Below are positions 16,550 through 47,376 of a stretch of DNA of 64,000 nt, in pieces (the first letter of the stretch is position 1; each line of letters begins with the position of its first letter). The translations under genes were made by a program, and so were the position numbers. The notes beneath the pieces were generated by a model. That model did no database searches. It saw only the letters and a program-made list of their open reading frames with translations, and was not told the origin of the DNA. The stretch is from Patescibacteria group bacterium (GTDB lineage: Bacteria > Patescibacteriota > Patescibacteriia > UBA1558 > GWA2-36-10): positions 2,369 through 66,368 of the forward strand of contig JBAYIQ010000002.1 in the NCBI GenBank assembly GCA_041665545.1, written 5' to 3'.

Positions 16550-16552
16550 ATT

Positions 16553-17284: not shown

Positions 17285-17289
17285 AAATA

Positions 17290-18762: not shown

Positions 18763-18772
18763 TTCAAAAAAA

Positions 18773-19873: not shown

Positions 19874-19953
19874 AATATTTAAAACAATTTTGTTCCTGCT
19901 TGCTTATCATTCAACTCACATATTATAACACATTTTTTACTCTCCCACCAAAT

Positions 19954-22860: not shown

Positions 22861-22867
22861 TAATTAT

Positions 22868-30248: not shown

Positions 30249-30338
30249 TGGCGGAGAGTGAGGGATTCGAACCCCCGATCCCCTTGCAGGGATAACAGTT
30301 TTCAAGACTGTCGCATTCGACCGCTCTGCCAACTCTCC
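30249..30338 (-). tRNA. tRNA-Ser (anticodon TGA), 90 nt including encoded CCA
   Basis: Manual cloverleaf: acceptor GGAGAGT/ACTCTCC, anticodon stem ACAGT/ACTGT, loop CTTGAAA, long variable arm, T-loop TTCGAAT, 3' GCCA. Confidence 0.8.
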
Positions 30339-30445
30339 GGGTCTATAATAAATTGTAAGCTTTGTTGTTTTTTATTAGTAAGTGGTTGAGGGTTTGAAAA
30401 ACCCGAAACCACGAGCGAGCCCAAGCTATGCTTGGGCGAGTCGAG

Positions 30446-30521
30446 TGGTGACCCCGGCAGGAATCGAACCTGCAACCTTTTGGACCGCAACCAAACGCTC
30501 TATCCATTGAGCTACGAGGCC
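30446..30521 (-). tRNA. tRNA-Arg (anticodon GCG), 76 nt including CCA
   Basis: Manual cloverleaf: D-stem GCTC/GAGC, anticodon stem TTTGG/CCAAA, loop TTGCGGT, 5-nt variable loop, T-arm GCAGG TTCGATT CCTGC, 3' ACCA. Confidence 0.7.
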
Positions 30522-30533
30522 ATGTTAAAAAAA

Positions 30534-31145
30534 TTATTGGTTTATTTTTGTTTTACGAAATTTTTTGCGGAAGTAATAAAAAATTAAAGCCAGAACCGCA
30601 ATTATTAAAATAACATCTAACACTTCGCTGTATTTACGAACCAAAGCCCAATTATCTCCTAAAGAGTAGCCAGCATAAGCCAATATTGAATTCCAAAGGC
30701 CAGCTCCCAAAGTGGTGTAGATAATAAATTTTCCTAATTTCATTTTGCCAGTGCCAGCGGGAATGGAAATCAAGTGTCTAACTATTGGAATAAAACGGCT
30801 AATAAAAATTGTTTTATCCCCAAATTTATTAAAAAAATTTTCAGTTTTTACTAAATGATGTTCATTGAGTAAAAACCATTTACCGTATTTAATTATCAAA
30901 GGGCGTCCACCATATAGACCCAAGCCATAGGAAAGCAGTGAGCCGATAATACTACCAATGGTGCTGCTAATAACAATTAAGACAAAAGACATCTGTCCAG
31001 AATGCCACAGGAAGCCAGCAAAAGGCATGACCGCCTCACTGGGCACGGGCAGTATCATGCTCTCCAAAACCATCAAAAATCCTAAGCCATAATAAGAACC
31101 AGCCGAAATAATATTAGTGAAAAGATCAACCAGGTATTCAACCAT
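30534..31145 (-). CDS. dedA: DedA family membrane protein
   Basis: 203 aa; GLGFLMVLESMILPVPSE is the DedA/SNARE-associated signature. Confidence 0.8.
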   Translation of the reverse strand: MVEYLVDLFTNIISAGSYYGLGFLMVLESMILPVPSEAVMPFAGFLWHSGQMSFVLIVISSTIGSIIGSLLSYGLGLYGGRPLIIKYGKWFLLNEHHLVKTENFFNKFGDKTIFISRFIPIVRHLISIPAGTGKMKLGKFIIYTTLGAGLWNSILAYAGYSLGDNWALVRKYSEVLDVILIIAVLALIFYYFRKKFRKTKINQ

Positions 31146-31181
31146 TTTTTATTTTTTAATTTAAACTAGTTTATTCGACAC

Positions 31182-31273
31182 TAAATTATGGTGGCGGAGA
31201 GGGCGAGATTCGAACTCGCGGACCAGTTTAACCCGGTCAACAACTTAGCAGGTTGCTGCTTTAAGCCACTCAG
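31182..31273 (-). tRNA. tRNA-Ser (anticodon GCT), 92 nt including CCA
   Basis: Manual cloverleaf: acceptor GGAGAGG/CCTCTCC, anticodon loop CTGCTAA, long variable arm TGACCGGGTTAAACTGGTC, T-loop TTCGAAT. Confidence 0.8.
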
Positions 31274-31487
31274 CCACCTCTCCACAGTAATACATCAATT
31301 AAATTTCCCGAAAAAATTTATTACAAATAAAATATAAATTGGCAATTAAGCCCCGTATATGAGCGTAGCGAATTGTACGGGGCACCTCTCCGTGCATAAA
31401 TCAGCTTATATAGTAATATATTTTGTTGATTTTGGCAAGGGTGCTAATGTTCAAAATAAACAGCCTATTTTTTGTTTACCAAACATA

Positions 31488-32852: not shown

Positions 32853-34985
32853 ATGGCAAAAAATTTTTTTTATCATACTCCTCTCTCTGAATTGCACGCT
32901 ATAACTTCTGGCCTGCAAAAAGATTTTAATAAATTAGAAATAAAAACAGTCGGCGATCTGCTGTGGTATTTTCCTTTTAGATATGACGACTTAAGTGAAG
33001 TAAAAAAAATTAGCGAGCTGACTGATGACGAGCTAACTACTATCAAAGTAAGTATTTTAAAAATACGCTCTTTTCGCTCTTGGAAAAGAAAAATAATGAT
33101 TACCGAAATCGTAGTCACTGATGGTGAGGAACAATTGACCGCTACTTGGTTTAATCAAAAATTTGTCAGCCAAATATTAAAAATCGGCGATGAAGTTTTT
33201 TTGAACGGCAAACTGCAAATGAAGGGCACCAAATATCTAATGTCCAATCCTAGCTATGAAAAAGTCAAAGACCGACCTCTGCATAGCGCCCGCTTGGTGC
33301 CCAACTATCATCTCAGTGGGAAAATAACCCAAAAACAATTGCGTTTTGTGATTGATAAGGCCCTAAAAATAGCCCCTAGCGTCGAAGACCCCTTTCCCGT
33401 GGAAATATTAAACAAAGAAAAATACCCCTGGCTGTTTGAAGCCCTAGAGCAAATTCATTTTCCCGGTGATTTAGTTCATTTGGAAAAAGCCATTCAAAGA
33501 CTAAAATTTCAAGAGCTATTTTATCTGCAACTCAAATACCAGCTAGCCAAAAAAGATTACCAAAACAACCCCACTTATCAAATACCAACTGCTAAAATAT
33601 TTTTAAATAAAATAATCAAAAATTTACCATTCCGACTGACCGCTGATCAGCTAGAATCCTTAGATGAAGTATTGAGCGATATTGCTAAAACCCAACCCAT
33701 GAATCGACTGTTGGAGGGCGATGTTGGCTCGGGCAAGACAATAGTGGCCATGCTATCTGCTTTTAGCGTCATAAAAAACGGACAGCAAGTGGCTTTCATG
33801 GCGCCCACTGAAATATTGGCCCGCCAACACTACCTAAATGCTCTGAAATTATGGCCCACGCTTTTAGCCAAAAATACCGCCCTATTGAGCAGTAGCCAAC
33901 AATTAGTGGGCTTGGAAGAAAAATCAACTAAACAAAATATTTCTAAATTATTAGCCAATGGCAAAATAAAATTAATTTTTGGCACCCATAGCTTGATTCA
34001 AGATAATATTTCTTTTAAAGATTTGGCTCTAGTAATTATCGACGAACAGCATCGTTTTGGCGTCAAACAAAGACAGGCCTTGAAAACAAAAAATAATAAC
34101 AATTTTGTGCCACATCTTTTGTCTATGACCGCCACACCCATTCCTCGCACTCTGTCACTCACTCTCTATGGCGATCTAGATATTTCTTTGATTAAAAGCA
34201 AACCACTAGGTAGACAAATTGTAAAAACTTTTCTAGTGCCAGAAAAAAAACGGCTTGATGCTTATAATTTTATCCGCGAAAAAATAAAAGCCGGTCAACA
34301 AGCTTTTATTATCTGTCCGCTAATAGATGAAAGTGACCCGTCTCGCCAACCAGCTTCGCCAGCGAAGCTGGGCGAGGGCAAGGCCGAGGCGGACAAACTG
34401 GGCGCCAAATCAGTACTTAAAGAATACGAAAAAATAAAAAATGAAATTTTCCCAGATTTAAATATTGCCATGCTCCATGGCCAGATGTCAGCCGAAGAAA
34501 AAAATGCTGTCATGACTGATTTCAAAGCCAAAAAAAGCTCCATATTGGTAGCCACCTCTGTCATTGAGGTTGGGGTGGATATACCGGGTGCAACTTTGAT
34601 GCTTATCGAAAGCGCCGAAAGATTCGGACTGTCACAACTGCATCAATTCCGTGGCCGAGTTGGTCGTAATGATTTGGAAAGTTTTTGCCTGCTTTTTACT
34701 AGCGACCCCACCAAACAAACCACTAAACGACTCCAAATTTTGACATCAGAAAATGATGGTTTCAAGCTAGCGGAATTGGACTTGGAGCTCCGAGGCAGTG
34801 GCTCGATATTTGGTACCAAACAAACCGGCTTGATGCCCTTAAAAATTGCCACTCTTACCGACACTGTCTTATTAAAAAAAGCCCAAGAGTGGGCTCGGAA
34901 AATAATAACTAATAAAAAGTATCGCTCACAAACTCAGGTCGTAAAACTGCTTGAGGATCTAAAAACCGAAATGCATTTGGAATAA
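32853..34985 (+). CDS. recG: ATP-dependent DNA helicase RecG
   Basis: 710 aa with an N-terminal wedge/OB region and helicase motifs GDVGSGKT, DEQHRFG and QLHQFRGRVGR. Confidence 0.9.
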   Translation: MAKNFFYHTPLSELHAITSGLQKDFNKLEIKTVGDLLWYFPFRYDDLSEVKKISELTDDELTTIKVSILKIRSFRSWKRKIMITEIVVTDGEEQLTATWFNQKFVSQILKIGDEVFLNGKLQMKGTKYLMSNPSYEKVKDRPLHSARLVPNYHLSGKITQKQLRFVIDKALKIAPSVEDPFPVEILNKEKYPWLFEALEQIHFPGDLVHLEKAIQRLKFQELFYLQLKYQLAKKDYQNNPTYQIPTAKIFLNKIIKNLPFRLTADQLESLDEVLSDIAKTQPMNRLLEGDVGSGKTIVAMLSAFSVIKNGQQVAFMAPTEILARQHYLNALKLWPTLLAKNTALLSSSQQLVGLEEKSTKQNISKLLANGKIKLIFGTHSLIQDNISFKDLALVIIDEQHRFGVKQRQALKTKNNNNFVPHLLSMTATPIPRTLSLTLYGDLDISLIKSKPLGRQIVKTFLVPEKKRLDAYNFIREKIKAGQQAFIICPLIDESDPSRQPASPAKLGEGKAEADKLGAKSVLKEYEKIKNEIFPDLNIAMLHGQMSAEEKNAVMTDFKAKKSSILVATSVIEVGVDIPGATLMLIESAERFGLSQLHQFRGRVGRNDLESFCLLFTSDPTKQTTKRLQILTSENDGFKLAELDLELRGSGSIFGTKQTGLMPLKIATLTDTVLLKKAQEWARKIITNKKYRSQTQVVKLLEDLKTEMHLE

Positions 34986-34986: not shown

Positions 34987-35916
34987 CTAATCACCTCCAC
35001 AACGACTAGCGTCTATACCCCACTCACCTCCTACTGGCGCACACTTATCAGCACGATAAGGTATGTCCTCACAACACCAGGTTCTAGAATCTGGATTATT
35101 TTCAATTTGACAATCACTATTACTAGAACATGATTTTGTTCTTAAATCTGAACAAATTGTGCTCCAATAACAAACCTCACCTAGTGGAGAGGTGCCATTT
35201 TTAAAATTTTTACCATAACAGGCATTAACGCGGCAGTTTGGTTCATCCAAAGCATCCATGAAATATCTAATACCTTCATAACCACTTGAGGAGTAGGTTC
35301 TTTCTGATGAAATGGGAAATTCTATTTGCAGACAATCTATAACCGTACTTGGTGCTGTGGCAGCTACTGCTGTTGTATCTAGGCATTTGCCAGTAGCCGT
35401 GGCATCAAGGGCTATCTGTTCTGGAGTGGCCTTTACCCACTTACAACTAGGTGCTGGACAAGATTTTTCTATAGTAAACACCGAACAAGTAAGTTTTGGT
35501 AAATCCCTGTTCAGTGGCTCAAAAGATACTAAACGCTGACTAATTAGTGATAACAATATATAGCCCCCAAACAAAAGAGCCAAACCAATCAAGGTGCTAT
35601 TGATCTTGTCTCGAGCACTAGATATTTTGGATGAATTACCACCAGCCAGTAACCACTCCCAGCCAGCATAGACCAACATAAACATAGCCACCACCCCAGC
35701 AAACATACCGCCATAGCGGTATATACCAACAATGTATTTGGCTAAAGATGAGCCATCAACTAAAAATGGCTCTCCGGCTGTATAAAGCCCAGGAATAGTC
35801 ATGGATGGTATAAACTCTAGTGGCGTAGTATTTTCCTTATCAGCGGCTATTACAATATTGGCCAACACAAAACCAAGAGAAAAAATCAGCAATAAAATTA
35901 TTTTTTTATTTTTCAT
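34987..35916 (-). CDS. VirB2/TrbC-like pilin-fold membrane protein with Cys-rich C-terminal domain (paralog A)
   Basis: 309 aa with a signal peptide and two hydrophobic helices separated by a short polar loop (GMFAGVVAMFMLVYAGWEWLLAGG-NSSKISSARDKIN-STLIGLALLFGGYILLSLIS). The C-terminus has ~18 Cys. The N-terminal 150 aa are near-identical to 35932-36978. Confidence 0.45.
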   Translation of the reverse strand: MKNKKIILLLIFSLGFVLANIVIAADKENTTPLEFIPSMTIPGLYTAGEPFLVDGSSLAKYIVGIYRYGGMFAGVVAMFMLVYAGWEWLLAGGNSSKISSARDKINSTLIGLALLFGGYILLSLISQRLVSFEPLNRDLPKLTCSVFTIEKSCPAPSCKWVKATPEQIALDATATGKCLDTTAVAATAPSTVIDCLQIEFPISSERTYSSSGYEGIRYFMDALDEPNCRVNACYGKNFKNGTSPLGEVCYWSTICSDLRTKSCSSNSDCQIENNPDSRTWCCEDIPYRADKCAPVGGEWGIDASRCGGD

Positions 35917-35931
35917 GAAAAAATTCTATAA

Positions 35932-36978
35932 TCAATTTAATTGAAAGTGCCACCATTCGGTATCAAGTTGTTTAAAACCAGCACTACGCATTGTTTGAAG
36001 CAAAACCCATTGAGCATCATACAATCCAGGTACTCCGGCGCAAGGAGCAGGATTGGAGTGATTGTCCATGGCGCAATTGTATGCTTTGTTAATATACCCA
36101 CAGGTATCAACCGTGGAATTCTTAATGCAAATATCCACCGCTGTTCCAGTTTGGTGAGGAGCATCACAACCTGGTTTAGCCGCTTCATTACACGAGCGAC
36201 AACCAGTGGGACAAGTATTACCATCCTTATTAATATAACAATCATACAACTCCTTTTGTAAGGCCGTTGTACGATAAGCGCTATTTATTTGTAAACTATG
36301 CCCAGGATAGGCATTCAAAAATATTACTGCACTTCCTAGAGCTGAAATTGTCGGGCCAGTCAACCTGCAATCGGTGCACTCCGAACTAAGAATAATACCA
36401 CTAACTTGTATCGGCTTAACCAATGACTCTGAAGGACAAGCCGTAGACGCCAACGACAAAGCGTCTTTACAAAAACCCAAAACTTTTGGATCTTTTGCCA
36501 ACTCCTCGGCTGTAGCTGGAATCCAAAAACATCTAGCTTTGGTGCATTCATCTGGTTTACTAAAAGCCATACAAATTGCTTTCACATCAGGCAAAGCTGT
36601 ATTCAGTGGTTTAAATTTTACTAAATTTTCGCTAATCAAAGAAAGCAAAATATAGCCACCAAATAAAAGTGCTAAGCCAATCAGCGTGCCATTGATCTTG
36701 TCTCGAGCACTAGATATTTTGGATGAGTTACCCCCAGCCAGTAGCCATTCCCAGCCAGCATAGACCAGCATAAACATAGCCACCACGCCAGCAAACATAC
36801 CACCATAACGGTAAATGCCAACAATATATCTGGCTAAAGTTCCTCCATCTACCGTAACTTCCTTTGTGAATTCACTACCGGGTATATCGATGCTCGGTTT
36901 GAATTCTATAGCCATTACTAAAAGCGGCAAAAATATTGCTGTTACAAAATAAAAAGTTATTAAAAACTTTTTTAACAT
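35932..36978 (-). CDS. fusion protein: VirB2/TrbC-like membrane module plus C-terminal peptidase M15 (VanY/D-Ala-D-Ala carboxypeptidase-like) domain (paralog B)
   Basis: 348 aa with the same N-terminal module as paralog A. The C-terminus carries LAS/M15 zinc-hydrolase motifs SAYRTTALQKELY, HQTGTAVDI and EWWHFQ. Confidence 0.55.
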   Translation of the reverse strand: MLKKFLITFYFVTAIFLPLLVMAIEFKPSIDIPGSEFTKEVTVDGGTLARYIVGIYRYGGMFAGVVAMFMLVYAGWEWLLAGGNSSKISSARDKINGTLIGLALLFGGYILLSLISENLVKFKPLNTALPDVKAICMAFSKPDECTKARCFWIPATAEELAKDPKVLGFCKDALSLASTACPSESLVKPIQVSGIILSSECTDCRLTGPTISALGSAVIFLNAYPGHSLQINSAYRTTALQKELYDCYINKDGNTCPTGCRSCNEAAKPGCDAPHQTGTAVDICIKNSTVDTCGYINKAYNCAMDNHSNPAPCAGVPGLYDAQWVLLQTMRSAGFKQLDTEWWHFQLN

Positions 36979-38213
36979 TATTTTAATCTTATGCCTTGCA
37001 AAGTCCCACTATTTCTATCCATAAAATACAACATAGTGCCATCAGCCGAAACTGATAAATTGTAAGCAGAGTAGGCACCCTCAGAGCCGACTGGACTAGC
37101 TAGTAAAGTTTTTACACCAGAATTCAAATCCACACGATAAAAATTGTCTGGATACTGATAGGATATTTCTGGATAAATACCGGCTCCGCGGGGTAGACCT
37201 TGAGGCACTGCACAAAACATAGTTGATTCGTCAGTATAGGTGCATTTATCTGGCCAAGTATTGATGCTAAGTGATACTTTGAGATCTCCCATTTCTCCGG
37301 TCTTACCACTAGTCACCCACAAATTAGGCAAATAATCAGTCTGCGTATTGTACACGCTATAAACCAAGGAATTGCCGGCTGGTGACCACTTGGAAACAAA
37401 ACCAGAACCAGCGACCTCAAAAGCTTTGAGACTTTCGCCATTCAAGCCAATGGGGTACACCATTTGTCGCAAATTATCAATACTTTTTTCATGCAAAGCG
37501 GCAACTTGGTTGTCCGGCGAATAAACTATTTGCGTACTGTATGACTTGTCGCCAAGTTTTTCTACCAAAGCCAAACCCGAGCCATCATCTTTGGCTGATA
37601 TAATCCAATTATTATCTGAATCATTTTGACTGGCGTCACTAAACCATTTAGCGGTTATGGCATCGCCCTGTTTGCTAAAAGAAAATTCCTCCATTTCTTT
37701 GGGCAAGGTCACTTGTTTTTCTTGCTTAAAATTATACAAAACATTGGCACCATCTGGATACTCAATAATTGCTTTTTCTCCGCTATTGCTCCAAGTAACG
37801 TTAGACACACCATAAAATAACTTGTCACTCAACAATTCTATTTGACCATTGGCGTTTATCTTAAAAAATTGCTGTTTGGTCTGATCATAAAAATTTATAC
37901 CACTAGTGCTTTTGACCAAACCAACCACTGAATCGGCTATGACTTTGTTGACCTCAGTCAGTCCGCCACTAGCTACTTTGGAAACCTTGCTATTATCAAA
38001 CTGCTGCCCCGGCAAAATCGGTATAGTGTTGGTATTACCATTGGTCGTCTGTGGAGTACCTGTGGCAATATTTGGCAAATTACCACCACTGATATTGTTA
38101 TTATTCTGATTAGCTGGTGGAACTGATCGAAAAAATACCCAGTACAGGGCAAAACCCAAACCCAAAACCGCTAGCACAAACAAAGTCACAATCAATATTT
38201 TTTTTAGACTCAT
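36978..38213 (-). CDS. membrane-anchored extracellular PD40/TolB-like beta-propeller protein
   Basis: 411 aa with an N-terminal TM helix and repeated YSPDNQ..., WSPAGNSLVY, SADGTMLYF motifs typical of PD40 repeats. Confidence 0.4.
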   Translation of the reverse strand: MSLKKILIVTLFVLAVLGLGFALYWVFFRSVPPANQNNNNISGGNLPNIATGTPQTTNGNTNTIPILPGQQFDNSKVSKVASGGLTEVNKVIADSVVGLVKSTSGINFYDQTKQQFFKINANGQIELLSDKLFYGVSNVTWSNSGEKAIIEYPDGANVLYNFKQEKQVTLPKEMEEFSFSKQGDAITAKWFSDASQNDSDNNWIISAKDDGSGLALVEKLGDKSYSTQIVYSPDNQVAALHEKSIDNLRQMVYPIGLNGESLKAFEVAGSGFVSKWSPAGNSLVYSVYNTQTDYLPNLWVTSGKTGEMGDLKVSLSINTWPDKCTYTDESTMFCAVPQGLPRGAGIYPEISYQYPDNFYRVDLNSGVKTLLASPVGSEGAYSAYNLSVSADGTMLYFMDRNSGTLQGIRLK

Positions 38214-38257
38214 CGGGTTAGAAATTAATTTATATTATTATTTTTTTTAATCATTTT

Positions 38258-38821
38258 TTATTCACCCTTTAAAATACCCCAAAATACTTTCCAGAAAATA
38301 CTACTCAAATTACTAAGCGTCTCTAATGGATTTTCATAAACTTGAACCATGAGGGTAATGCCCAGCATTATCATGTTAAAAATCGTAAAAATCACCAACA
38401 AGCCAATGAGCCACAATATTATTTCCCCCATACCCAATTTCGGAATAATCTTGGAGCCGAAAATGTTGCCAGCGATAAACTGCACGGTCCAAATCAAAAC
38501 CGTCAAGAATGCCAGAATGACCGTAGCCCCCATAGCCATGTTGACCGCTCGCCAAGTCAATTTTTGGGCTATTTCTTTTTTTATTTTTTCTTCGGCCTGT
38601 TGTTGTAAAACATTGCCATCCTTCTCGCCTTCTTGCTGTTTGGCCTTACCACGCAAAGATTCCAAACGTCGACGCAAAAATCCCTGACTTTTTTCCTCTT
38701 GTTCGGCTACTGGGTCTAGCTCCTCTGCTGTATCCGGCACAGAACTAGAAGCTACTCGACGAGCCGCTGCTAAATCCCTTTGATAATTTGCCTGTAAAAC
38801 TTCGGCCATAATTATTGCCAA
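38258..38821 (-). CDS. hypothetical membrane protein (cytoplasmic N-terminus, 3 C-terminal TM helices)
   Basis: 187 aa; hydrophobicity pattern only. Confidence 0.35.
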   Translation of the reverse strand: MAIIMAEVLQANYQRDLAAARRVASSSVPDTAEELDPVAEQEEKSQGFLRRRLESLRGKAKQQEGEKDGNVLQQQAEEKIKKEIAQKLTWRAVNMAMGATVILAFLTVLIWTVQFIAGNIFGSKIIPKLGMGEIILWLIGLLVIFTIFNMIMLGITLMVQVYENPLETLSNLSSIFWKVFWGILKGE

Positions 38822-39411
38822 TAAGCTGCGTCAACTAACCACTGCTTATCACTTTTTACTAAATTAACTTTTATATCTTGATATAATGTATTAGAAACTA
38901 ATTTACCATCCACCGACTTTGTTTCTTGTCTTTGAGTCTGGACCGTAATATCTGCCCGACTAGCAGAAATACTATTCACCTTCTGGGAAATACTCTTAGT
39001 GGTAATTCCTGTATAGCTTGTGGCCTTATAATCCATTTCTAAATTTTTTAAATAAATAGCCATCTTGTCAGTACACTGACCGAGAACTTGCTTGATATTT
39101 TCTCCTGGCAAGTCCGAGGAATAAGTGCCATAACGCTCAGCAAAATTCAGGGCTGTTTGGATGGCCAATAATTCGTCATTACTAACAATTGGCGACACTT
39201 CTTTGTATTGCAAATTGGCACTAGCCGGTTTAAACTCTGGCAATTGGTTACTATTTTTATCATTGGGCTTTTGTCCAAAATCAGTCAATTTGAAGGCCAA
39301 GAACAGAGCCACGGCAACTATTATAACCACCAAGGCAATTATAATTATTTTTTTTCTTTTTACTGCATCCATATATTTTATATTTACCCCGTTAAATAGA
39401 ATTAAAGCCAC
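38812..39411 (-). CDS. bitopic membrane protein (possible VirB8-like role, speculative)
   Basis: 199 aa with an N-terminal TM helix then a ~150-aa extracytoplasmic domain; directly downstream of the VirB4-like gene. Confidence 0.3.
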   Translation of the reverse strand: MALILFNGVNIKYMDAVKRKKIIIIALVVIIVAVALFLAFKLTDFGQKPNDKNSNQLPEFKPASANLQYKEVSPIVSNDELLAIQTALNFAERYGTYSSDLPGENIKQVLGQCTDKMAIYLKNLEMDYKATSYTGITTKSISQKVNSISASRADITVQTQRQETKSVDGKLVSNTLYQDIKVNLVKSDKQWLVDAAYWQ

Positions 39412-39519
39412 GCTTTAATTCTAAATTTATTTTATTAGTGTATTTTGTTTTCATAAAACCATTATTTATTTCTTGCTTAAATATATTACTTGGAAAATAA
39501 ATTTATTTAACGGGGTGAA

Positions 39520-41427
39520 TTATTTTTCTTCCGCGATCATAGATTCCTCAAACTCTTTTTTGGATTGCTCAATTTCCAACAACTGTCTAGGGTCAGAAGT
39601 GATGATTAGATGTTCAGCGTATGAGGCCTGCACTTTGATAGCGGCGTGCTTGGCTCCAGCAAAAAATATACCCTCGCCCACTCCTGATTCTAAGAGTAAA
39701 TATTTTTCCCCTTCAGTCAACATGAATGTCTTTTGGATCAAATTGACAGCGGCTGGTGACTGCTTGAGCAACAATTGCATTGAAGAGTTGGTGACGATGG
39801 CATTACCAAATGGCGAAGTCAAAAAGTCATTGACATCTTGAGTGATGGTAGTGACGCCAAGATAATACTTACGACAACGCTTGACCAGAGCAAACATAAA
39901 TTTGGCACTATCATCATGACGCATCATAATCCAAGCTTCGTCAACTACCAAAATGCGCCGTTTCAATTCACTACGAATAATATTCCAAATATAGTTCACA
40001 ATAACATACATGGCAATTGGCCGGAGCTCATCTTCCAAGTCCCTGATACAAAAGACGATCAATTGATTGTTGACCTTGACATTGGTTGGACTATTGAATA
40101 GACCGGAAAAAGTACCTTCAGTATATTTCTTGATCCTCAAAGCCATATCTTCTCCGCCCTCCATGCTGAGTAAAACCTCTTCCAAATCAGACATCAACGG
40201 TGGCTCAATATTACTCAAATCACTGGCTGGCGTAATATCTTTTTTGGCATAAGTCTCGATCAAGGCCCGATCCAATAAAGAATCCTCAGTATTGGTGACA
40301 TTACCTATCATCAAGCGAATCAAGCCTTTGAGAGTAATTACCGCGCTACGCAATATATCCTCTGGTTTGCTATCGCCACCAATACCACGCGGTAGATCAA
40401 AAGGATTGAGCTTGCTTTCGGAGTTCAAAGACACGTTGATATAGGCGCCGTTGACAGCTTCTGACAAGTGCTGATATTCATTCTCTGGGTCAATGATAAT
40501 CACATCAGTGCCCAACATCAAGGAACGCAATACTTCTAGCTTGATGGCGTAACTTTTGCCAGCACCCGAAGTAGCGAAAACGACCATATTGGCATTTTGC
40601 AAACTAAAACGATCAAATAATATCAAACTATTGTTGTGACGATTGATACCGTACAAAATTCCTTGATCAGAGGTCAGTTCAGAGGACACAAAGGGAAAAG
40701 ACGAAGCAATCGGTGAACTGTTCATGTTGGTGGTGATCCCCAGCTCGTCATTACCCAAAGGCAAAGTAGAGTTGAAGCCCTGTTCAGCTTGCCACAAAGC
40801 CCGGCGAGAATAAATCAACTGTGTGCCTAGTAAATTTTCAATGCGATCAGAGACAAGATCTAATTCTGTTTTGTCTTTGGCGTACAAAGTAATATAAAGG
40901 GCAAATTGAAAAAACTTTTCACTGCCTTGCGACAAGCTATCACGCAATCCCTCAATATCTCTCAAAGCAATTTCGGCAATAGGATCGCGTGGCGCTCCTT
41001 TTTCGGCATCAGCCATAATTTGCGCTTCCATGGTACCGACTTTGTTTCTCAATTGCTTCAAGACTAGCCGTATATTCATGGGATAAAAATACATGCTAAT
41101 GTCCAAAGTCAAACTTTCATTGATAATGGGCGCAAACCAACCAATAGACACATAACGCGGATAAGTGACCACAAATATTGTGCGTAAAAAAATATCATTG
41201 AGCTGCAAAAAAGTACTCTCAATTTTCATGGCCGCCGGAGCGATGATATCGCGCACTGAAACAATGCCTTCGCGCAAAACTTTTTCCGCTTCCAAAAGCT
41301 CTTTGTCACTCTCCTCTTTTTGCTTATGGCTGGCTTGGGCCTTTAGGGCTTGAAAACGTGCCGCTCCTTCTTCAGCGTTCTTATCGGCGGCTTGTTTTAT
41401 TTGGTTGGCTTCAAACATTGGTCTCAA
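39520..41427 (-). CDS. VirB4/TrbE/CagE-family type IV secretion ATPase, ATPase domain ORF
   Basis: 635 aa with Walker A FATSGAGKSY, Walker B ILVVDEAW and GVTTITQDVNDF, plus the conserved YPRYVSIGWF region of VirB4. Confidence 0.75.
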   Translation of the reverse strand: MRPMFEANQIKQAADKNAEEGAARFQALKAQASHKQKEESDKELLEAEKVLREGIVSVRDIIAPAAMKIESTFLQLNDIFLRTIFVVTYPRYVSIGWFAPIINESLTLDISMYFYPMNIRLVLKQLRNKVGTMEAQIMADAEKGAPRDPIAEIALRDIEGLRDSLSQGSEKFFQFALYITLYAKDKTELDLVSDRIENLLGTQLIYSRRALWQAEQGFNSTLPLGNDELGITTNMNSSPIASSFPFVSSELTSDQGILYGINRHNNSLILFDRFSLQNANMVVFATSGAGKSYAIKLEVLRSLMLGTDVIIIDPENEYQHLSEAVNGAYINVSLNSESKLNPFDLPRGIGGDSKPEDILRSAVITLKGLIRLMIGNVTNTEDSLLDRALIETYAKKDITPASDLSNIEPPLMSDLEEVLLSMEGGEDMALRIKKYTEGTFSGLFNSPTNVKVNNQLIVFCIRDLEDELRPIAMYVIVNYIWNIIRSELKRRILVVDEAWIMMRHDDSAKFMFALVKRCRKYYLGVTTITQDVNDFLTSPFGNAIVTNSSMQLLLKQSPAAVNLIQKTFMLTEGEKYLLLESGVGEGIFFAGAKHAAIKVQASYAEHLIITSDPRQLLEIEQSKKEFEESMIAEEK

Positions 41428-42097
41428 TATTTAATTTACTTATATCTTCTAGGGGTTGTTTTTGAAATAAATTTGGATTGTAGCTATTGTAATAAACTTC
41501 AATTAATTCCTGCGTCTTGAGCCGTTCACTGCGCAAACCCAAACTAGCTAAACCAGACTGGATGAAACTACAACGCTTGTCTAGTTGGGCGCTAAATTCA
41601 TCAAGTCGCTTGCGACTTAAACGCACTATTTTAGCTGAGGAAAAAACTGCTCCAAAACGATTGACAAATTTGCGACCCTTGTCGCTTACTGGATTATAGG
41701 GCACCACCACATAAAATCTTTTGCTCATGATTTTTTCTAGGGTCAAAAGCTCTAGCACAAACTGTCGATAATCAGCGGTTTGGATGCGCAATAATTCATT
41801 GGTCTGCTCTTTTTCTACTTTTTTTAGACGATTAAGATAATCATCAATATTAAGTGGCCGTGACTGAATCAATACTTGCAAAGGATAGTCCAAGGTATTC
41901 AAAAAACTCACATAGCCAGAAATAATAGCCGCTTGCTCGTCTTCTGATTTGAGATCAAAATTTATAGAGGAAACCAAGAGTACTCCCCGCACCGTGCCAT
42001 CATTCAAAATCACCAAGTCATCACGCACCTCGGCAATGTCCAAAAATCTTTGAGTGGAAACTTGTGGCTTATTACCAGCCAACTTTTTACTACGCAT
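41411..42097 (-). CDS. VirB4 N-terminal (CagE_TrbE_VirB-like) domain encoded as a separate ORF
   Basis: 228 aa; FLDIAEVRDDLVILNDGTVRGVLLVSSINFDLKSEDEQAAIISGYVSFLNTL matches the VirB4 N-domain pattern. It overlaps the ATPase ORF by 17 nt in a different frame. Confidence 0.5.
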   Translation of the reverse strand: MRSKKLAGNKPQVSTQRFLDIAEVRDDLVILNDGTVRGVLLVSSINFDLKSEDEQAAIISGYVSFLNTLDYPLQVLIQSRPLNIDDYLNRLKKVEKEQTNELLRIQTADYRQFVLELLTLEKIMSKRFYVVVPYNPVSDKGRKFVNRFGAVFSSAKIVRLSRKRLDEFSAQLDKRCSFIQSGLASLGLRSERLKTQELIEVYYNSYNPNLFQKQPLEDISKLNIETNV

Positions 42098-42101
42098 ATT
42101 A

Positions 42102-42572
42102 TTATTTATTTATTTTTCCGTTTGGTAAATTATTCATGGTATTGGCCAACAGTTCTCCTTGATATACTCCGCCAGTATCAATAATCAATGATAGTTCTGA
42201 TAATTTTTTGCCGGTCACCATTGTTTTGGGAGCTATTGTTTGCACTACTAAATTTTCATCTTTATTTTTGCGCTCTTCAATTTTAATATATTCTTTTTTC
42301 CAAATCCGCAATCTCGGTCTTTTCAAAGTCTGGATAAGGGACAACAAAAACATAGGAAAAATAGCACCATTTATTTTAACAAAACCAAAGATTACTATTA
42401 ACAAAATAATAACTATAGTCTGCGTCAAAAACAAAGCAAAATCAGCCAAACGATAACTAATAAATATAAAAAGAGCCCCAACGATAACAATGGCAAACTG
42501 CCGGACAGTAATCGGTCCCCAGATTCTATCCTCGGCATCAATAAATTGTGGCACAATAAAACGATTTTGCAT
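42102..42572 (-). CDS. PrgI/VirB3-like two-TM membrane protein
   Basis: 156 aa with two adjacent TM helices near the N-terminus; located immediately upstream of the VirB4 ORFs, as VirB3 and PrgI are. Confidence 0.4.
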   Translation of the reverse strand: MQNRFIVPQFIDAEDRIWGPITVRQFAIVIVGALFIFISYRLADFALFLTQTIVIILLIVIFGFVKINGAIFPMFLLSLIQTLKRPRLRIWKKEYIKIEERKNKDENLVVQTIAPKTMVTGKKLSELSLIIDTGGVYQGELLANTMNNLPNGKINK

Positions 42573-42577
42573 AAAAG

Positions 42578-43789
42578 CTAAAAGCGTAATAATTTATTTA
42601 AATCGCCAATGGCGTTAAACTCTTCGATGGTCAAAACTTCTTGGCCGGCGGCTTTTTGTTCGGCAATCAGCTGGGATACCTCCTGACCCTTCATCAAGCT
42701 GGAAGCGCCTAGATCCAAATATAGCTTGTAGACTGGGCTTTTACGCCAAGCAGCAATACCCATTGTTTTTTTGGTTACTGACTCCTTTTCTAAAATATTG
42801 ATTTTCTGCAACAACTTCTGGGCTCTCTCAGATGCTGTATTACCATAGCGCCTAAAAGTAGACAAAAGCATATTTTCTAATTCCTGCACTGGGCCAGTCA
42901 AAACTGCTTTTTCTTTGCCCGAAGCTAAATTAGCTTTGGCCACCACATCAGACATCAGTGGCTTGACTGGACTAATCTGCTCCCCGCGCATGACTTTGGG
43001 CATAGATGGTGTACTGACTATCTCTGGAATCTGTTCCTCTACTTTTGGTTTAAGCTCAACTTTTATTGGTTCAATTTTTGGTGGCTCGGGTTTCTTTTCT
43101 TCCACAAAATCCGTGGCCATTTTGACTGGAGGAAAAGCATCTATAATCTCTGGTTTAGCTGGTTTTTTAGGTAATTCGGCCACGTCTTTTTTGATATCAC
43201 TCTGCCTGACTACCAAGCCACCTTCAGCCTCTATCCTTTCTTTGATGCCTTTGACTATAGAACCAATGTGGTCAATCACTTGATTGGATAAATTGTGGCC
43301 ATTGGAAAACACCTTTTCAATCAAGTATCCTCTACTAATAATATAATTCTTTCGATTGCGAAAATAATCAAACAAAATATTATTAAAAATTTCTTGATTA
43401 TTTTTGTCCAAAAGTAAATTATTTTTTTCCGCTATTCTTTGAGTGATTTTTTCCAAACTATACTTCTTACTCTCATCCGTGGGTAAATTTAAATTAAAAT
43501 TTTCAATCTGTTCGTGGTCTTCCGGATGAAAAACAAAAATAGCCGGCTCGTGCGCCTGTCCGCCACCATGAAAAAAATCAAAATTAGCATCAAGCGGAGC
43601 AACATTGAGGGTGGTCAATTCATGTGGAGGAGCTATTTCCAAAACAGTCCTACTATCTACGGGCCTGATGTCACTGGGTGGAGTATTTTTTGTCTGGTGA
43701 TAGGGTTTTAGACGCCCAGACAAATCTCTAACCAATAAATCATCAACCCAAGGTACACTGGTGCTTGTTTGGCTTAAAAAATCAGGCAT
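42578..43789 (-). CDS. hypothetical protein with Pro/Lys-rich linker (first gene of the VirB4 operon)
   Basis: 403 aa with no TM helix and a PEPPKIEPIKVELKPKVEE low-complexity segment. Confidence 0.35.
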   Translation of the reverse strand: MPDFLSQTSTSVPWVDDLLVRDLSGRLKPYHQTKNTPPSDIRPVDSRTVLEIAPPHELTTLNVAPLDANFDFFHGGGQAHEPAIFVFHPEDHEQIENFNLNLPTDESKKYSLEKITQRIAEKNNLLLDKNNQEIFNNILFDYFRNRKNYIISRGYLIEKVFSNGHNLSNQVIDHIGSIVKGIKERIEAEGGLVVRQSDIKKDVAELPKKPAKPEIIDAFPPVKMATDFVEEKKPEPPKIEPIKVELKPKVEEQIPEIVSTPSMPKVMRGEQISPVKPLMSDVVAKANLASGKEKAVLTGPVQELENMLLSTFRRYGNTASERAQKLLQKINILEKESVTKKTMGIAAWRKSPVYKLYLDLGASSLMKGQEVSQLIAEQKAAGQEVLTIEEFNAIGDLNKLLRF

Positions 43790-44056
43790 TGGCTGTCATT
43801 TATATTGTTATATTATAACATATTTTAGGTCCATAAGCCAATGGAATACTTTTCGCCTCGCGCTTGAGCGCGAGGCGTCTAAATTGTTCATTTCATCCCT
43901 CGAAGCATTGTTCTATTTTTCTGCCAAGTGAGATTAAAAAAATTCACTTGGCCGTTTTTTCAAAACAAAAACTTGAAAAACTAGGCAAAGAGGGATAATA
44001 AAATTCTCCCCAAGTGCCTGACTTAAAAGGAGAATTTTATTTAGTAAAAAATTATA

Positions 44057-44614
44057 TTAAGCTCGAGATACGTATTCGCCTGTTTCCGTATTTATGATCA
44101 ATGTATCGCCACTTTTTATAAAAAGCGGTGTCCGGACTTCCAAACCAGTTTCCAAAATCACAGCTTTGGTCACAGCTCCGGCGCTATTGCCCTTGACTCC
44201 TTCGGGAGCAGAAACGACTTTTAGATTAATCTTGGCTGGCAAGGATACAGCCACTGGCTTGTCATTGAAAACCATAACATCAACCTCTTGGCCTTCTTTC
44301 AAATATTTTTCCATGTCATTCAGCTCTTTTTTGTTGAACTGAAATTGCTCAAAGTCGGCGGCATCCATAAAAAAATAATCATCACCCTGAGCATAAAGAT
44401 AGCTGGCATGACGTCGAGCGGTATCGGCAATTTCCACAGTATCAGATCCGGAAAAAGATTTTTCCAAAGTATTGCCATTGACCAAATTCTTCAACTTGGT
44501 TTTGACTACTGCTCCACCTCTAGCCACCTTGATGTGCTGATTGGAAACAATCTGGTAAGGGTCATTGTTGACCACAATAATCTTACCGACTTTTAAATCG
44601 CTTAAACTACCCAT
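44057..44614 (-). CDS. efp: elongation factor P
   Basis: Start refined to the ATG at 44614 (MGSLSDLKVGKII...); KOW-like N-terminal domain plus two OB domains, and EF-P length. Confidence 0.85.
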   Translation of the reverse strand: MGSLSDLKVGKIIVVNNDPYQIVSNQHIKVARGGAVVKTKLKNLVNGNTLEKSFSGSDTVEIADTARRHASYLYAQGDDYFFMDAADFEQFQFNKKELNDMEKYLKEGQEVDVMVFNDKPVAVSLPAKINLKVVSAPEGVKGNSAGAVTKAVILETGLEVRTPLFIKSGDTLIINTETGEYVSRA

Positions 44615-44618
44615 AATA

Positions 44619-44840
44619 TTATCGTGAAACAAAAGGCAATAAAGCCATAAATCTGGCTCGCTTGATTACTTGAGCTAATTTGCGTTGGTGTTTGGAACAA
44701 ACGCCATTTCTCCTCTTGGGAGTAATTTTCCCGTAAGAAGAAACATATTTCTGTATTTGTTGCCAATCTTTGTAATCAATCTCTAATTGATTATTGACGC
44801 AAAAATTGCAGTGTTTAGTGTTACTTTGCTTATTATGCAT
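44619..44840 (-). CDS. rpsR: 30S ribosomal protein S18
   Basis: Start refined to the ATG at 44840; CNFCVNN...[41 protein letters not shown] is the S18 signature. Confidence 0.85.
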
Positions 44841-44974
44841 ATATTTTAGTTTAAAGTTACAAGTTGAAAGTTGCAAGTACCACCCCTGTGGCAGTAGAGT
44901 AAAAGTTAATTACTTTATCACCCAGAGGGCGATCACCCTTTGGGTGATACTTTTTACTTGCTACTTTTTACTAT

Positions 44975-45460
44975 TTAGAATGGTATATCCTCGATACTAA
45001 TTTCTTCCTCATTGGACTCGGGCGCGGGTTGAACACCTTCGGACACGTTGGGCATATTGTTGGTGTAACTTGCTTGCCGATCAGTGGCGCGCGGAGCGCT
45101 TGGAACTTGGTAATCCTGATTGCTATTGCCACCAGCGCGATCAAGCATGATCATGTTTTCAGCAATAATCTCTGTGCGATAACGCTTGACGCCATTGGGA
45201 TCATCCCAAGACCTGGTCTGCATCCGACCTTCGATGTAGACTTTGGAGCCCTTTTTCAAATATTGGCTAGTGATCTCCGCCAAACGACGCCAGGCCACAA
45301 CATTGTGAAACTCCGCTTTTTCTTGGCGTACTCCAGCTTGATCTTTCCAGACAAAATTGGTAGCCACAGAAAAACTAGTGACATTTTGGCCACCAGTAGT
45401 GGAGCGCATTTCTGGATCACGCACCACATTACCGATAATCATTGCTTTGTTGAGATTCAT
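44975..45460 (-). CDS. ssb: single-stranded DNA-binding protein
   Basis: 161 aa with an OB fold (MNLNKAMIIGNVVRDPEMR...) and the C-terminal acidic tail ending DIPF. Confidence 0.9.
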   Translation of the reverse strand: MNLNKAMIIGNVVRDPEMRSTTGGQNVTSFSVATNFVWKDQAGVRQEKAEFHNVVAWRRLAEITSQYLKKGSKVYIEGRMQTRSWDDPNGVKRYRTEIIAENMIMLDRAGGNSNQDYQVPSAPRATDRQASYTNNMPNVSEGVQPAPESNEEEISIEDIPF

Positions 45461-45471
45461 ATTTTTTATGA

Positions 45472-45975
45472 TTAATCAACTTTTGGCTCTTTGGCCAATA
45501 TCGCATCCAGTTGTTTATCAATGTCATCCAAAACAACTTTCGGCTTAACCACGGGCTTATCCTCTGCCTTCTTGACCTGAGCCATTGGTCGCAAAGGGCG
45601 AGTCATTGGTCGTCTGGCCTTCTTGGCAAAGTCTGGCTTAGTAGTCTGTTGCCAACGCAAAATTTCTGAGCTAGTAGCAACTTTTTGGCGCTTGACTATC
45701 AAGTGACGCAAAATGTTATTGTCTAGCTTCAAATCATGATCTAATAACTTAACAGCTTTTTGTTCTGTTTCGTCAAAAGAAAATTCCACGTAAAAATAAA
45801 AACCGTGCTTTTGTTTTTTAATCGGATAAGCTAGCTTTCGCCGGCCACCCGGATAAAAATCGTGCACAATTTTAGCGTTGATTTTTTTTAGATAGCCCAA
45901 AACCTGCTCCTGAACCTGTTTGTGTTCGGTTTCAGGAACATTAGGATTGACTATCAAACCTAATTCGTAGTGCAT
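45472..45975 (-). CDS. rpsF: 30S ribosomal protein S6 (with basic C-terminal extension)
   Basis: Start refined to the ATG at 45975 (MHYELGLIVNPN...); rpsF-ssb-rpsR synteny. Confidence 0.85.
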   Translation of the reverse strand: MHYELGLIVNPNVPETEHKQVQEQVLGYLKKINAKIVHDFYPGGRRKLAYPIKKQKHGFYFYVEFSFDETEQKAVKLLDHDLKLDNNILRHLIVKRQKVATSSEILRWQQTTKPDFAKKARRPMTRPLRPMAQVKKAEDKPVVKPKVVLDDIDKQLDAILAKEPKVD

Positions 45976-46194
45976 AGTATGGATCTTAATTACCTTAGCT
46001 GATAAATCAGGCAAGGGTCAACCGAGGCAAGCTCGGCCACATGGTTAATTAAATACCCAAATTTTTGAGCAATTTGGATTCGGCTACTTTACCACAATGA
46101 AAACTAAAAGTCAACACCCAAAACAACCCGCCGGGTAACCCGGCGGGTTGGCAAAAAGATTGCCTAATATACTATTTTTTACTATTATTAAGCC

Positions 46195-47376
46195 ATGCCA
46201 AAATATATTTTAATCACTGGCCAGTCGCGAGATCTAGCTCAAGCTGAGATCTGGTCTGTTTTCAATAAACAAGCAAAAAACTTAGAATTTCACCCTAATT
46301 ATTGCTTGTTGGAGCTTGATTTAGATGCTGAACAGCTAATGAACCGCTTAGGTGGCACTATCAAGATAGCTAAATATTTAGCTAGTTTTGACAATCTAAA
46401 TCAACTGACTACTGATTGGTGGGCAAAAAATTTGGATAAAAAAGATAATAAAATTAATTTTGGTTTTAGTCTTTATGGCGGACAAAATAAAAAATATTTA
46501 CCAATCAAAAAAATTGCGCTGTCTGTAAAAAAAGAATTATCAGCCCAAGGGTATAAGAGCCGTCTAGTCACCAGCCAAGAGTTAGAACTATCCTCAGTAG
46601 TGGTCAAAAAAAATAATTTATTGGGTAATGAACTATTAATTATCCCTGATTCCGACAAGTACATTATCGGGCTGACTCAGGCCGTGCAAGATTTTGAAGA
46701 CTATGCTGAACGCGATATGAATAGACCCGGACGCGACGATAGATCGGGTATGCTACCGCCCAAAGTAGCCAAAATGATGGTCAACTTGTTGGGAGCAGAA
46801 ACTAAAGAAATTTTACTAGACCCTTTTTGTGGCTCAGGTACGGTCTTACAAGAAGCTGTAATTTTGGGCTACAAAAAATTGTTAGGCACAGACAAGAGTG
46901 CCAAAGCCATTGAGGACAGCCAAAAAAATCTAGCCTGGCTAAAAAAACAATACCAATATTCTTTTGAGGCCAAAATTATAAAAGCTGACGCTGAAAATTT
47001 AAGCAAATATTTATCACCCCACTCGGCTGACTACTTGGTGAGCGAGCCGTTTATGGGCTCGGCTCCAGAAATTATGAAAAAAAATAATTTGAGCTACTTT
47101 CATGATTTGAGTCAAGAATTGGCTGGGCTTTATTTCTACTCTTTTCAAGAATTTTATAAAATATTAAAACCGGGTGGAAAAATAATTTTTGTTTTTCCAA
47201 TTTTCAATGTCCAAGATATAAAAATAGACACTCTAGATATAAAACGAATAGAAAAAATCGGTTTCAAAAATATTGGGCTACCAATAAATTTTAAATCAGC
47301 AAAAAACGGGCAGATTGTCTATCAACGCCCGCAACAAAAAGTGTCCCGCCAAATTACTATTTGGGAAAAAATATAA
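46195..47376 (+). CDS. SAM-dependent RNA methyltransferase, UPF0020/RlmL-like (putative N2-guanine or N6-adenine)
   Basis: 393 aa with SAM motif I DPFCGSGTVLQEA and motif IV SEPFMG ([DNS]PP[FY]-like). Confidence 0.6.
   Translation: MPKYILITGQSRDLAQAEIWSVFNKQAKNLEFHPNYCLLELDLDAEQLMNRLGGTIKIAKYLASFDNLNQLTTDWWAKNLDKKDNKINFGFSLYGGQNKKYLPIKKIALSVKKELSAQGYKSRLVTSQELELSSVVVKKNNLLGNELLIIPDSDKYIIGLTQAVQDFEDYAERDMNRPGRDDRSGMLPPKVAKMMVNLLGAETKEILLDPFCGSGTVLQEAVILGYKKLLGTDKSAKAIEDSQKNLAWLKKQYQYSFEAKIIKADAENLSKYLSPHSADYLVSEPFMGSAPEIMKKNNLSYFHDLSQELAGLYFYSFQEFYKILKPGGKIIFVFPIFNVQDIKIDTLDIKRIEKIGFKNIGLPINFKSAKNGQIVYQRPQQKVSRQITIWEKI

Follow-up and report, generated by a model that had tools for sequence, protein, structure and literature searches.

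A probable Patescibacteria-clade type IV secretion system with long VirB2-family hairpin proteins and a two-module layout

We analyzed a stretch of 64,000 nucleotides from a Patescibacteria group bacterium (assembly GCA_041665545.1, contig JBAYIQ010000002.1, positions 2,369 to 66,368), referred to below as the window. Positions 34987–43789 of its minus strand are occupied by a nine-gene operon of tightly spaced or overlapping open reading frames (ORFs) that encodes components of a type IV secretion system (T4SS). Judging from the sequence, it is very probable that this locus is a chromosomally inherited T4SS of the Patescibacteria clade, derived from the mating-pair formation (MPF) class FATA and having the gene arrangement of ABY1. 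The following features were recognized in the direction of transcription (TM, transmembrane; HMM, hidden Markov model):

43812–43841, minus strand: promoter-like site, TTGGCT-18 nt-TATAAT with a TG extension (10/12 consensus matches in a consensus scan)
42578–43789, minus strand: cytoplasmic orphan protein of 403 aa, the conserved first gene of the operon (structure model)
42102–42572, minus strand: PrgI/VirB3-like 2-TM protein, 156 aa (PF12666, E=1.8e-8, 35.2 bits, cutoff 27)
41411–42097, minus strand: TrsD/TraD-like protein, 228 aa, homologous to the VirB4 N-terminal domain (NCBIfam TrsD, 3.1e-10)
39520–41427, minus strand: VirB4 ATPase, 635 aa from a TTG start (632 aa by the gene caller; conju_CD1110)
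38812–39411, minus strand: bitopic 199-aa protein, probably a VirB8/PrgL-like scaffold (one N-terminal TM segment)
38258–38821, minus strand: 187-aa protein, hydrophilic at its N-terminus and ending in a 2-TM hairpin (TM 99–117 and 134–152)
36978–38213, minus strand: membrane-anchored protein, probably a PD40-type beta-propeller, 411 aa (N-terminal TM 6–24)
35932–36978, minus strand: 348-aa fusion of a VirB2-family hairpin with a peptidoglycan peptidase of the M15 (VanY/LdcB) type (HMM and motifs)
34987–35916, minus strand: 309-aa VirB2-family hairpin protein whose C-terminal domain is rich in Cys (AlphaFold2 model, 15 Cys)
34879–34896, minus strand: terminator-like hairpin and T-run (7-bp stem with 4 GC pairs, then TTTTT; consensus match only)

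The putative promoter, a consensus match only, lies about 20 nt upstream of the 403-aa gene, and the terminator-like hairpin follows the last gene of the operon, the 309-aa ORF. It should be mentioned that the 267-nt intergenic region between efp and the operon (43790–44056, minus strand) has an unusually stable fold (minimum free energy −78.9 kcal/mol, z=−6.1). Upstream of the predicted promoter it forms three strong hairpins, and of these the first resembles an efp terminator. A first-pass annotation made from the letters alone had listed a minus-strand operon with these components, and every component call was upheld with the ORFs at these coordinates. The two small membrane proteins that it named have one (199 aa) and two (187 aa) TM segments.

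To place the operon, a genome collection was scanned with VirB4, which gave 80 loci with 64–98% identity, all of them in metagenome-assembled genomes (MAGs) of Patescibacteria. The best curated model for the 635-aa ATPase itself is the Firmicutes-type, VirB4-like conju_CD1110 of NCBIfam (344 bits, cutoff 325). P-loop_TraG is also matched (7.7e-29), there is a weak similarity to CedB (2.4e-13), and the motifs are intact (Walker A, GAGKS, residues 288–292; Walker B, ILVVDE, residues 492–497). The assignment to VirB4 had been made subject to a comparison, set beforehand, with HerA/FtsK-type ATPases; in this comparison VirB4 scored higher, and the HerA/FtsK alternative was rejected because HerA/DUF87 reached only 32 bits against 344. 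The 156-aa protein scores above the gathering threshold of PF12666 and has two TM segments (residues 21–39 and 53–71); it is present in 73 of the 80 loci.

The 228-aa protein also matches the N-terminus of VirB4_plasma (2.2e-10) and carries the precomputed assignment PF26593 (TraC-like). The first-pass annotation had described VirB4 as split. There are indeed two ORFs, but not a broken gene: a separate TrsD-like ORF of about 226 aa is found in 77–78 of the 80 loci, and therefore the two-ORF layout is a conserved arrangement, the TrsD and VirB4 pair of the pGO1/pIP501 subclass. A frameshifted VirB4 pseudogene was rejected for the same reason. By homology, VirB4, the TrsD-like protein and PrgI/VirB3 are predicted to make up the membrane energizing center of the system.

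The informative names among the related loci are Kerfeld-, Komeili-, Magasanik- and Falkowbacteria, which we take to be members of the GTDB class ABY1. The core order (403-aa gene, PrgI, TrsD, VirB4, 199-aa gene) is kept in 67–78 of the 80 loci. Genes for the propeller and for the pilin-like proteins are found in 41–43 of these loci, and recG lies downstream in 31. The comparison with other Patescibacteria bins, which the first-pass annotation had proposed, thus revealed a conserved gene order across the 80 MAG loci. Many third-party-assembly (TPA) MAG records containing the locus (L005, L009, L012, L013 and others in the numbering of the scan) bear the title “uncultured Gammaproteobacteria bacterium”, and another goes under “Acutalibacteraceae”; such titles are apparently taxonomic mislabels.

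In ABY1 relatives at a greater distance, a ComFC-like gene directly follows the VirB8-like one (L055, L057, L061, L064, L066–L068, L071, L074–L076 and L079–L081), with matches to Pribosyltran in 18/54 and to DZR_2 (double zinc ribbon) in 12/54. By this neighborhood a competence protein is apparently tied to the T4SS core. The window itself has a Pribosyltran ORF at 28901–29566, about 5.4 kb past the end of the operon.

The flanks of the operon are of the housekeeping type, recG on one side and efp-rpsR-ssb-rpsF with a methyltransferase gene on the other. Upstream, beyond the latter block (44057–47376), three more genes were found:

47658–48899, minus strand: soluble 413-aa protein, directly downstream of the VirB6-like gene (no family match)
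48907–51435, minus strand: extended VirB6/TrbL-like polytopic membrane protein, 842 aa (7 predicted TM segments within residues 10–343)
51472–59745, minus strand: giant secreted or surface protein of 2757 aa, candidate adhesin (102 Cys, N-terminal TM segment or signal)

In the subclade of the window, the housekeeping block (rpsF-ssb-rpsR-efp and the methyltransferase gene) separates this group from the core operon. In some relatives it is inverted and in others absent, the modules being contiguous in the latter (L015, L016, L018 and L027 compared with L005, L009, L010 and L013). Since the 842-aa and 2757-aa genes adjoin the core operon in relatives, we assign them to the same system. The T4SS is thus predicted to consist of two modules, and its boundaries are to be widened to about 34879–59745.

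The 842-aa protein has a large hydrophilic C-terminal region, and 5 of its 39 orthologues match TrbL/VirB6 (PF04610, best 4.3e-5). Its gene is located upstream of the core in 38/80 loci and is directly adjacent to it in many (L025, L036, L056, L071, L080). A profile search of the PDB with the VirB6-like family returned only coiled-coil noise in the C-terminal region. The first-pass annotation had noted a VirB6/TrbL-like protein and a giant surface protein at some distance from the operon, and both are there: the former is the 842-aa ORF with its seven TM segments, and the latter the 2757-aa protein. The neighboring 413-aa ORF was rejected as the VirB6-like gene, having one borderline TM segment and no family match; a homologue adjoins the VirB6-like gene in 13–15 loci, and we tentatively consider it a part of the T4SS. 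Homologues of the 2757-aa gene adjoin the VirB6-like gene in 12 loci. The giant protein has no Pfam match on record, no detectable internal repeats and no LPXTG motif, and its position makes it a candidate adhesin of the system. Just upstream of its gene (59765–60544), a 259-aa membrane-anchored protein shows weak matches to bacterial TSP3 (calcium-binding) repeats.

Among the remaining operon products, the 199-aa protein is encoded in 69–72 of the 80 loci. The top PDB match of its family profile (46 sequences) is PrgL of pCF10 (7aed_A, E=0.0033), and the match, at profile positions 63–190, spans the extracytoplasmic domain. The homology is marginal; nevertheless, the protein is probably a VirB8/PrgL-like scaffold, as the literature would predict: VirB8-like matches were found almost only in ABY1 in a survey of 3035 Patescibacteria genomes (Quinonero-Coronel et al., 2025, PMC12102498). 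Sequence homologues of the 187-aa protein, for which no Pfam match was found, occur only in 6–8 close relatives, and many relatives have a 2–3-TM protein at the same position.

The 411-aa protein of the window is below the threshold for PD40 (E=0.09, 13.2 bits, cutoff 20.9). Nevertheless, its orthologues make the propeller call of the first-pass annotation probable, since 22 of 40 match PD40 (best 4.2e-9), and some propeller family is matched in 16/40. The gene is present in 43/80 loci and always adjoins the pilin-like genes; a PDB profile search with the family gave no matches. The 403-aa protein is modeled with a folded N-terminal domain (residues ~85–200), a disordered Pro-rich linker (202–294) and a helical C-terminal domain (300–403), both domains with confidence. 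Its family is large and comprises, at 50% identity, 2426 clusters with E<=1e-3 and 2062 with E<=1e-10; Pfam and other family searches, fold comparison of the model and a PDB profile search with the family all returned no match.

Both tandem hairpin genes, 3.5 kb from virB4, encode a signal helix followed by two hydrophobic helices (at residues ~50–118 in the 348-aa protein). The C-terminal domains of these proteins were overlooked in the first-pass annotation. In the 348-aa protein this domain matches Peptidase_M15 (PF01427, 31.3 bits, cutoff 27) and VanY (PF02557, 26.7 bits, cutoff 25) and contains the motifs SAYR (233–236), HQTGTAVD (275–282) and EWWH (341–344), corresponding to SxxR, HxxGxAxD and ExxH; the peptidase is apparently active. 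The AlphaFold2 model of the 309-aa protein (pLDDT 73.6) has a signal helix (3–24), helices at 55–90 and 95–130, and small beta-rich Cys domains. Structure prediction thus supports the proposed signal helix and two helices but does not add a pilin match: a Foldseek search of the PDB with this model retrieved nothing but helical hairpins of a generic kind (E>0.5 throughout) and no match to the Cys-rich tail.

The identification of the paralogues as VirB2/TrbC-like hairpins, already proposed in the first-pass annotation, holds at the level of the family. Among 61 hairpin homologues from related loci, 57 match PF18895 (best 3.5e-11) and four match TrbC/VirB2 (PF04956). A profile built from the hairpin only retrieves 109 canonical short pilins of 76–139 aa with E down to 5e-18; these match PF18895, often PF04956, and some are named “pilin”. 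A PDB profile search with the pilin family gave no matches.

In size, however, the proteins are not canonical. Mature VirB2/TrbC subunits are about 70–120 aa long, while the two window proteins have 309 and 348 aa as against 76–139 aa for the canonical matches. The same is true of the ABY1 loci, where all 64 hairpin ORFs are long (170–570 aa, including truncated ones) and none within ±10 kb is a plain short pilin of ~100–140 aa. The tails of the 61 homologues are mostly Cys-rich, but SLT (11/61), VanY/M15 (5/61) and M23 (1/61) domains also occur. Full-length fusions of the hairpin to M15 make up about 20 database clusters, whose annotation names only the M15 peptidase.

The hairpins of the two window paralogues are strikingly alike: the shared 71 residues are 94% identical and the remainder only 29%. 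In tandem pairs from relatives (L005, L009, L010, L015, L016, L028 and L038) the hairpin cores are 94–100% identical and the tails 16–48%, whereas hairpins of different clades are only 30–63% identical. Over all genomes compared, identity between the hairpins of tandem paralogues ranges from 80 to 100%. Recent gene conversion as the sole cause was rejected for the window, where the cores differ by 23 synonymous and 4 non-synonymous codons; it would fit L016, whose tandem cores have no nucleotide differences. Within the nearest subclade, cores of orthologues resemble each other about as much as those of paralogues do, which indicates simply strong conservation there, and the signal of concerted evolution is clear only across deeper divergence. 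These data fit a shared hairpin module that may be kept matched within a genome by gene conversion and/or selection and may serve in co-assembly or at a common docking site; matched hairpins with diverging heads would suggest co-assembly.

The hairpin proteins may instead not be pilins at all, the hairpin serving only as a membrane anchor that docks Cys-rich binding domains and wall hydrolases where the T4SS is located, with no pilus formed. The uniformly long ABY1 ORFs would agree with this, as would the nature of the C-terminal domains, which are enzymes typical of VirB1-like accessory factors; moreover, the hydrolases PrgK and TraG of Gram-positive T4SSs are membrane-anchored (PMC12102498). 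The hairpin profile is nevertheless clearly homologous to short Patescibacteria pilins (E down to 5e-18), and hairpins matched within a genome with diverging tails fit co-assembly at least as well as anchoring. We regard a purely anchoring role as a possible explanation, although a somewhat doubtful one.

The proposal that the locus is not a conjugative plasmid module but a Gram-positive-style T4SS, made in the first-pass annotation, is supported by three observations: the chromosomal housekeeping flanks, a base composition that is uniform across the window with no GC anomaly at the locus, and a gene order conserved across the 80 loci. Together, the flanks (recG and efp-rpsR-ssb-rpsF), the GC content and the conserved order fit a non-conjugative apparatus inherited with its lineage better than a module of a plasmid or of an integrative and conjugative element (ICE). 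The component set, which had been called unusual, is instead the published norm for Patescibacteria (PMC12102498; PMC10633639; PMC12857230).

Consistent with the earlier remark that relaxase, VirD4 coupling protein and VirB11 are not visible in the window, scans of its called genes for relaxase, type IV coupling protein (T4CP) and integrase families found none, and PF00437 ATPases, the superfamily of VirB11, were limited to the PilB- and PilT-like ones encoded in a cluster for a type IV pilus (T4P). At 30249–31283 on the minus strand there are genes for three tRNAs (Ser-TGA, Arg-GCG, Ser-GCT), with neither an integrase nor a repeat pointing to an integration site. The T4P cluster is complete and occupies 5494–24013 on the minus strand, so that T4P and T4SS are at most 11 kb apart. 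Its main genes are:

18773–19873, minus strand: PilM-like
14469–16205, minus strand: PilB-like (MshEN+T2SSE)
13005–14072, minus strand: PilT-like
11794–13002, minus strand: PilC/T2SSF
8861–9640, minus strand: prepilin peptidase A24

The cluster also contains a response regulator, several N_methyl prepilins, PilX_N and, without annotation, large ORFs of 968, 490 and 381 aa. Near the start of the window (158–940, minus strand) a lipoprotein resembling thioredoxin is encoded (Rcas_1661 family, E=7.5e-18), and in one relative a DsbA/thioredoxin gene lies within the T4SS locus. Such thioredoxin-like genes may be relevant to the disulfides of the many Cys-rich exported proteins.

Taken together, the components allow a mechanism to be proposed for the predicted T4SS. 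The 842-aa VirB6-like protein is a candidate channel, the PrgL/VirB8-like bitopic protein a candidate wall-spanning scaffold, and as subunits of a pilus or stalk the two hairpin proteins of the VirB2 family are the candidates. The long hairpin proteins with their M15 or Cys-rich domain, the PD40 propeller, the 403-aa orphan and the 2757-aa protein are the lineage-specific part. The ATPase complex would drive assembly of the hairpin subunits into an envelope-spanning structure at the site of host contact, and the fused hydrolase domains would provide VirB1-like opening of the cell's own wall and possibly that of the host. The propeller and the giant Cys-rich protein would act extracellularly, possibly as scaffold and adhesin. 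The apparatus would thereby join the epibiont to a host cell and move macromolecules rather than conjugate DNA, since in the window the locus is found without relaxase, coupling protein, integrase and plasmid backbone; candidates for transport would be the export of effectors and the import of host nucleic acid or nutrients. The role as a contact apparatus, which the first-pass annotation also suggested, is in this respect what we infer from the gene content.

A bolder version may be imagined, in which long VirB2-type subunits co-polymerize into the ABY1 filament or stalk, with identical hairpins packed against each other and varied heads (M15/SLT/M23 or Cys-rich) outside. Such an enzyme-studded pilus of the conjugative type would digest its way through the host wall and thereby open a feeding conduit, and the 403-aa family would be a cytoplasmic partner replacing the coupling protein. 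We consider this a long shot.

Several points weigh against the identification as a pilus-forming Patescibacteria-clade T4SS. The scope is 64 kb of the genome, and a T4CP or relaxase may lie elsewhere; VirD4-like genes are located far from virB4 in most Patescibacteria (PMC12102498). Placement in the Patescibacteria clade is drawn from best matches and the taxonomy of the nearest homologues. When the components of MPF-FATA are considered in turn, VirB4 and VirB3 are firm, whereas the calls of VirB6 (5/39 orthologues) and VirB8 (E=0.0033) are weak. Both window hairpin proteins are below the Pfam threshold of PF18895, and the hairpin model has no significant Foldseek match to solved pilins, which speaks neither for nor against the VirB2 fold. 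Finally, a C-terminal domain of ~200 aa could sterically bar a VirB2-type filament, in which case the hairpin may be only a membrane anchor.

As to what such a system would transport, one hypothesis compatible with its identity as a Patescibacteria-clade T4SS is that it imports nucleic acid, like ComB of Helicobacter pylori or the archaeal Ced system, supplying host DNA or RNA to a nucleotide-auxotrophic metabolism or to recombination. The genetic surroundings are suggestive: recG follows immediately downstream, ssb lies between the T4SS modules together with a DNA methyltransferase-like gene, the ComFC-like gene follows the VirB8-like one in distant ABY1 relatives, and the window has its Pribosyltran ORF at 28901–29566; comF, recG and radA are also reported to adjoin ABY1 T4SSs (PMC12102498). 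However, these neighbors are housekeeping genes and the linkage is perhaps incidental; in other relatives the rpsF-ssb-rpsR-efp block between the modules is inverted or missing. The T4SS has been proposed as a route of nucleotide acquisition (PMC11665869), and a 2026 preprint ties feeding on host RNA to putative T4SS pili, but no experiment is known to tie any Patescibacteria T4SS to uptake. The weak CedB similarity of VirB4 (2.4e-13) reflects only the shared VirB4/HerA-type P-loop, and the operon lacks a ComEC-like channel or DNA receptor. On balance we think import unlikely.

Export is the opposite possibility, the apparatus injecting proteins such as wall hydrolases or other effectors into the host or releasing them onto it. 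Protein exporters without relaxase and T4CP do exist (Bordetella Ptl and Brucella VirB, cited in PMC12102498), protein export was suggested by Wang et al. (PMC10633639), and the locus encodes a secreted hydrolase, Cys-rich domains and a giant surface protein. However, no candidate effector with a recognizable translocation signal was found, and since Sec-type signal peptides and membrane hairpins are present in the hydrolase and in the Cys-rich protein, these would not need the T4SS channel. This hypothesis, too, appears to us improbable. That the locus is instead the conjugative DNA-transfer module of an integrated element, with relaxase and coupling protein outside the window, can practically be dismissed, for although all recognizable components descend from monoderm conjugation machinery and genes like VirD4 are frequent at other sites of Patescibacteria genomes, the 64 kb contain no integrase, relaxase, T4CP, replication gene or GC shift, the recG synteny across many ABY1 lineages indicates vertical inheritance, and the survey found 109 relaxases in 3035 genomes and a VirB4 tree that tracks taxonomy (PMC12102498).

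A T4SS of this kind has already been described in papers of 2023–2025, and most ultra-small bacteria belonging to the Candidate Phyla Radiation (CPR)/Patescibacteria carry it. It is essential for epibiotic growth in one tested species, and the overall picture is not changed by the present locus. What may be new are the long ABY1 pilin-like fusions, the matched hairpins and the 403-aa family. Few VirB1 homologues were found in the survey, and pilus biogenesis seems independent of VirB1 there (PMC12102498). The pilin-hydrolase fusions may explain this scarcity and point to wall breaching as a part of the mechanism; in another reading, a VirB1-like function would ride on the pilin-like proteins. 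The 403-aa family, whose gene opens the operon, may provide the substrate-handling component of the cytoplasm that is otherwise missing. Thus, the hydrolase-bearing “pilins” with matched hairpins and this large orphan family are the parts most worth following.

Comparison with known systems revealed likenesses of different depth. DNA-import systems (H. pylori ComB; archaeal Ced), which transport inward, are likewise VirB4-based and relaxase-less, and here DNA-processing genes are located nearby; homology to them, however, stops at the P-loop of the ATPase. PrgK and TraG of pIP501 (VirB1-like) resemble the 348-aa protein in being membrane-tethered peptidoglycan hydrolases encoded within a T4SS operon, but the enzyme here is an M15 LAS metallopeptidase (SLT or M23 in some relatives) and its anchor is a VirB2-type hairpin. 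The pilins VirB2, TrbC and TraA (PF04956; PF18895, T4SS_pilin) share with both hairpin proteins the signal peptide, two hydrophobic helices, a short polar loop and family-level HMM matches, while the C-terminal extension of 180–230 aa with globular domains and the lack of a significant structural match set the latter apart.

The MPF-FATA systems (TrsC-TrsD-TrsE of pGO1/pIP501; PrgI, PrgJ, PrgL, PrgH and PrgK of pCF10) are closer. Genes for the VirB3-like protein, TrsD and VirB4 are collinear in them and in the window, a PrgL-like bitopic protein and a wall hydrolase are encoded in the operon, there is no outer-membrane core complex, and VirB4 is matched best by a Firmicutes model. They differ in that the locus is not on a mobile element and no relaxase or T4CP family was found in the window, that it has VirB2-family hairpins, which the Gram-positive systems do not have, and that its hydrolase is M15 and fused to the hairpin instead of SLT+CHAP.

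The Patescibacteria T4SSs themselves are reviewed as pilus-capable monoderm systems (PMC12857230), and their function has been called completely unknown (PMC11665869). In the survey, VirB4 was found in 2417 of the 3035 genomes and formed a monophyletic clade nested in MPF-FATA, with a tree that tracks taxonomy. Among the accessory components TrsD was the commonest, genes for VirB3/PrgI, VirB6 and arrays of VirB2-like pilins in tandem were found near virB4, T4CPs were rarely nearby, only 109 relaxases were detected, and the systems were chromosomal with recG, radA and comF as neighbors in ABY1 (PMC12102498). In Southlakia, where the lack of a coupling protein and relaxase was noted, the T4SS and pilin genes are essential according to transposon sequencing (Tn-seq; Wang et al., 2023, PMC10633639). 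The present locus departs from the main text of the survey in the size of its pilin-like proteins (309/348 aa with an M15 or Cys-rich domain, whereas the VirB2 homologues of the survey are small) and in the 94% identity of its hairpins, as against at most 54% within arrays; that text, supplementary tables aside, does not mention pilin-hydrolase fusions, the PD40 propeller or the 403-aa family.

In other respects, the locus resembles the systems of the survey and that of Southlakia epibionticum (SEML1_0006-0019, PMC10633639): it has the core of TrsD, VirB3/PrgI and VirB4, tandem VirB2-like genes near virB4, a VirB6-like gene and a VirB8-like hit of the ABY1 kind, and it is chromosomal, with recG and ksgA in the neighborhood and no relaxase or T4CP nearby. 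Feature by feature, it matches the published Patescibacteria T4SS and is one more ABY1 example of a known system.

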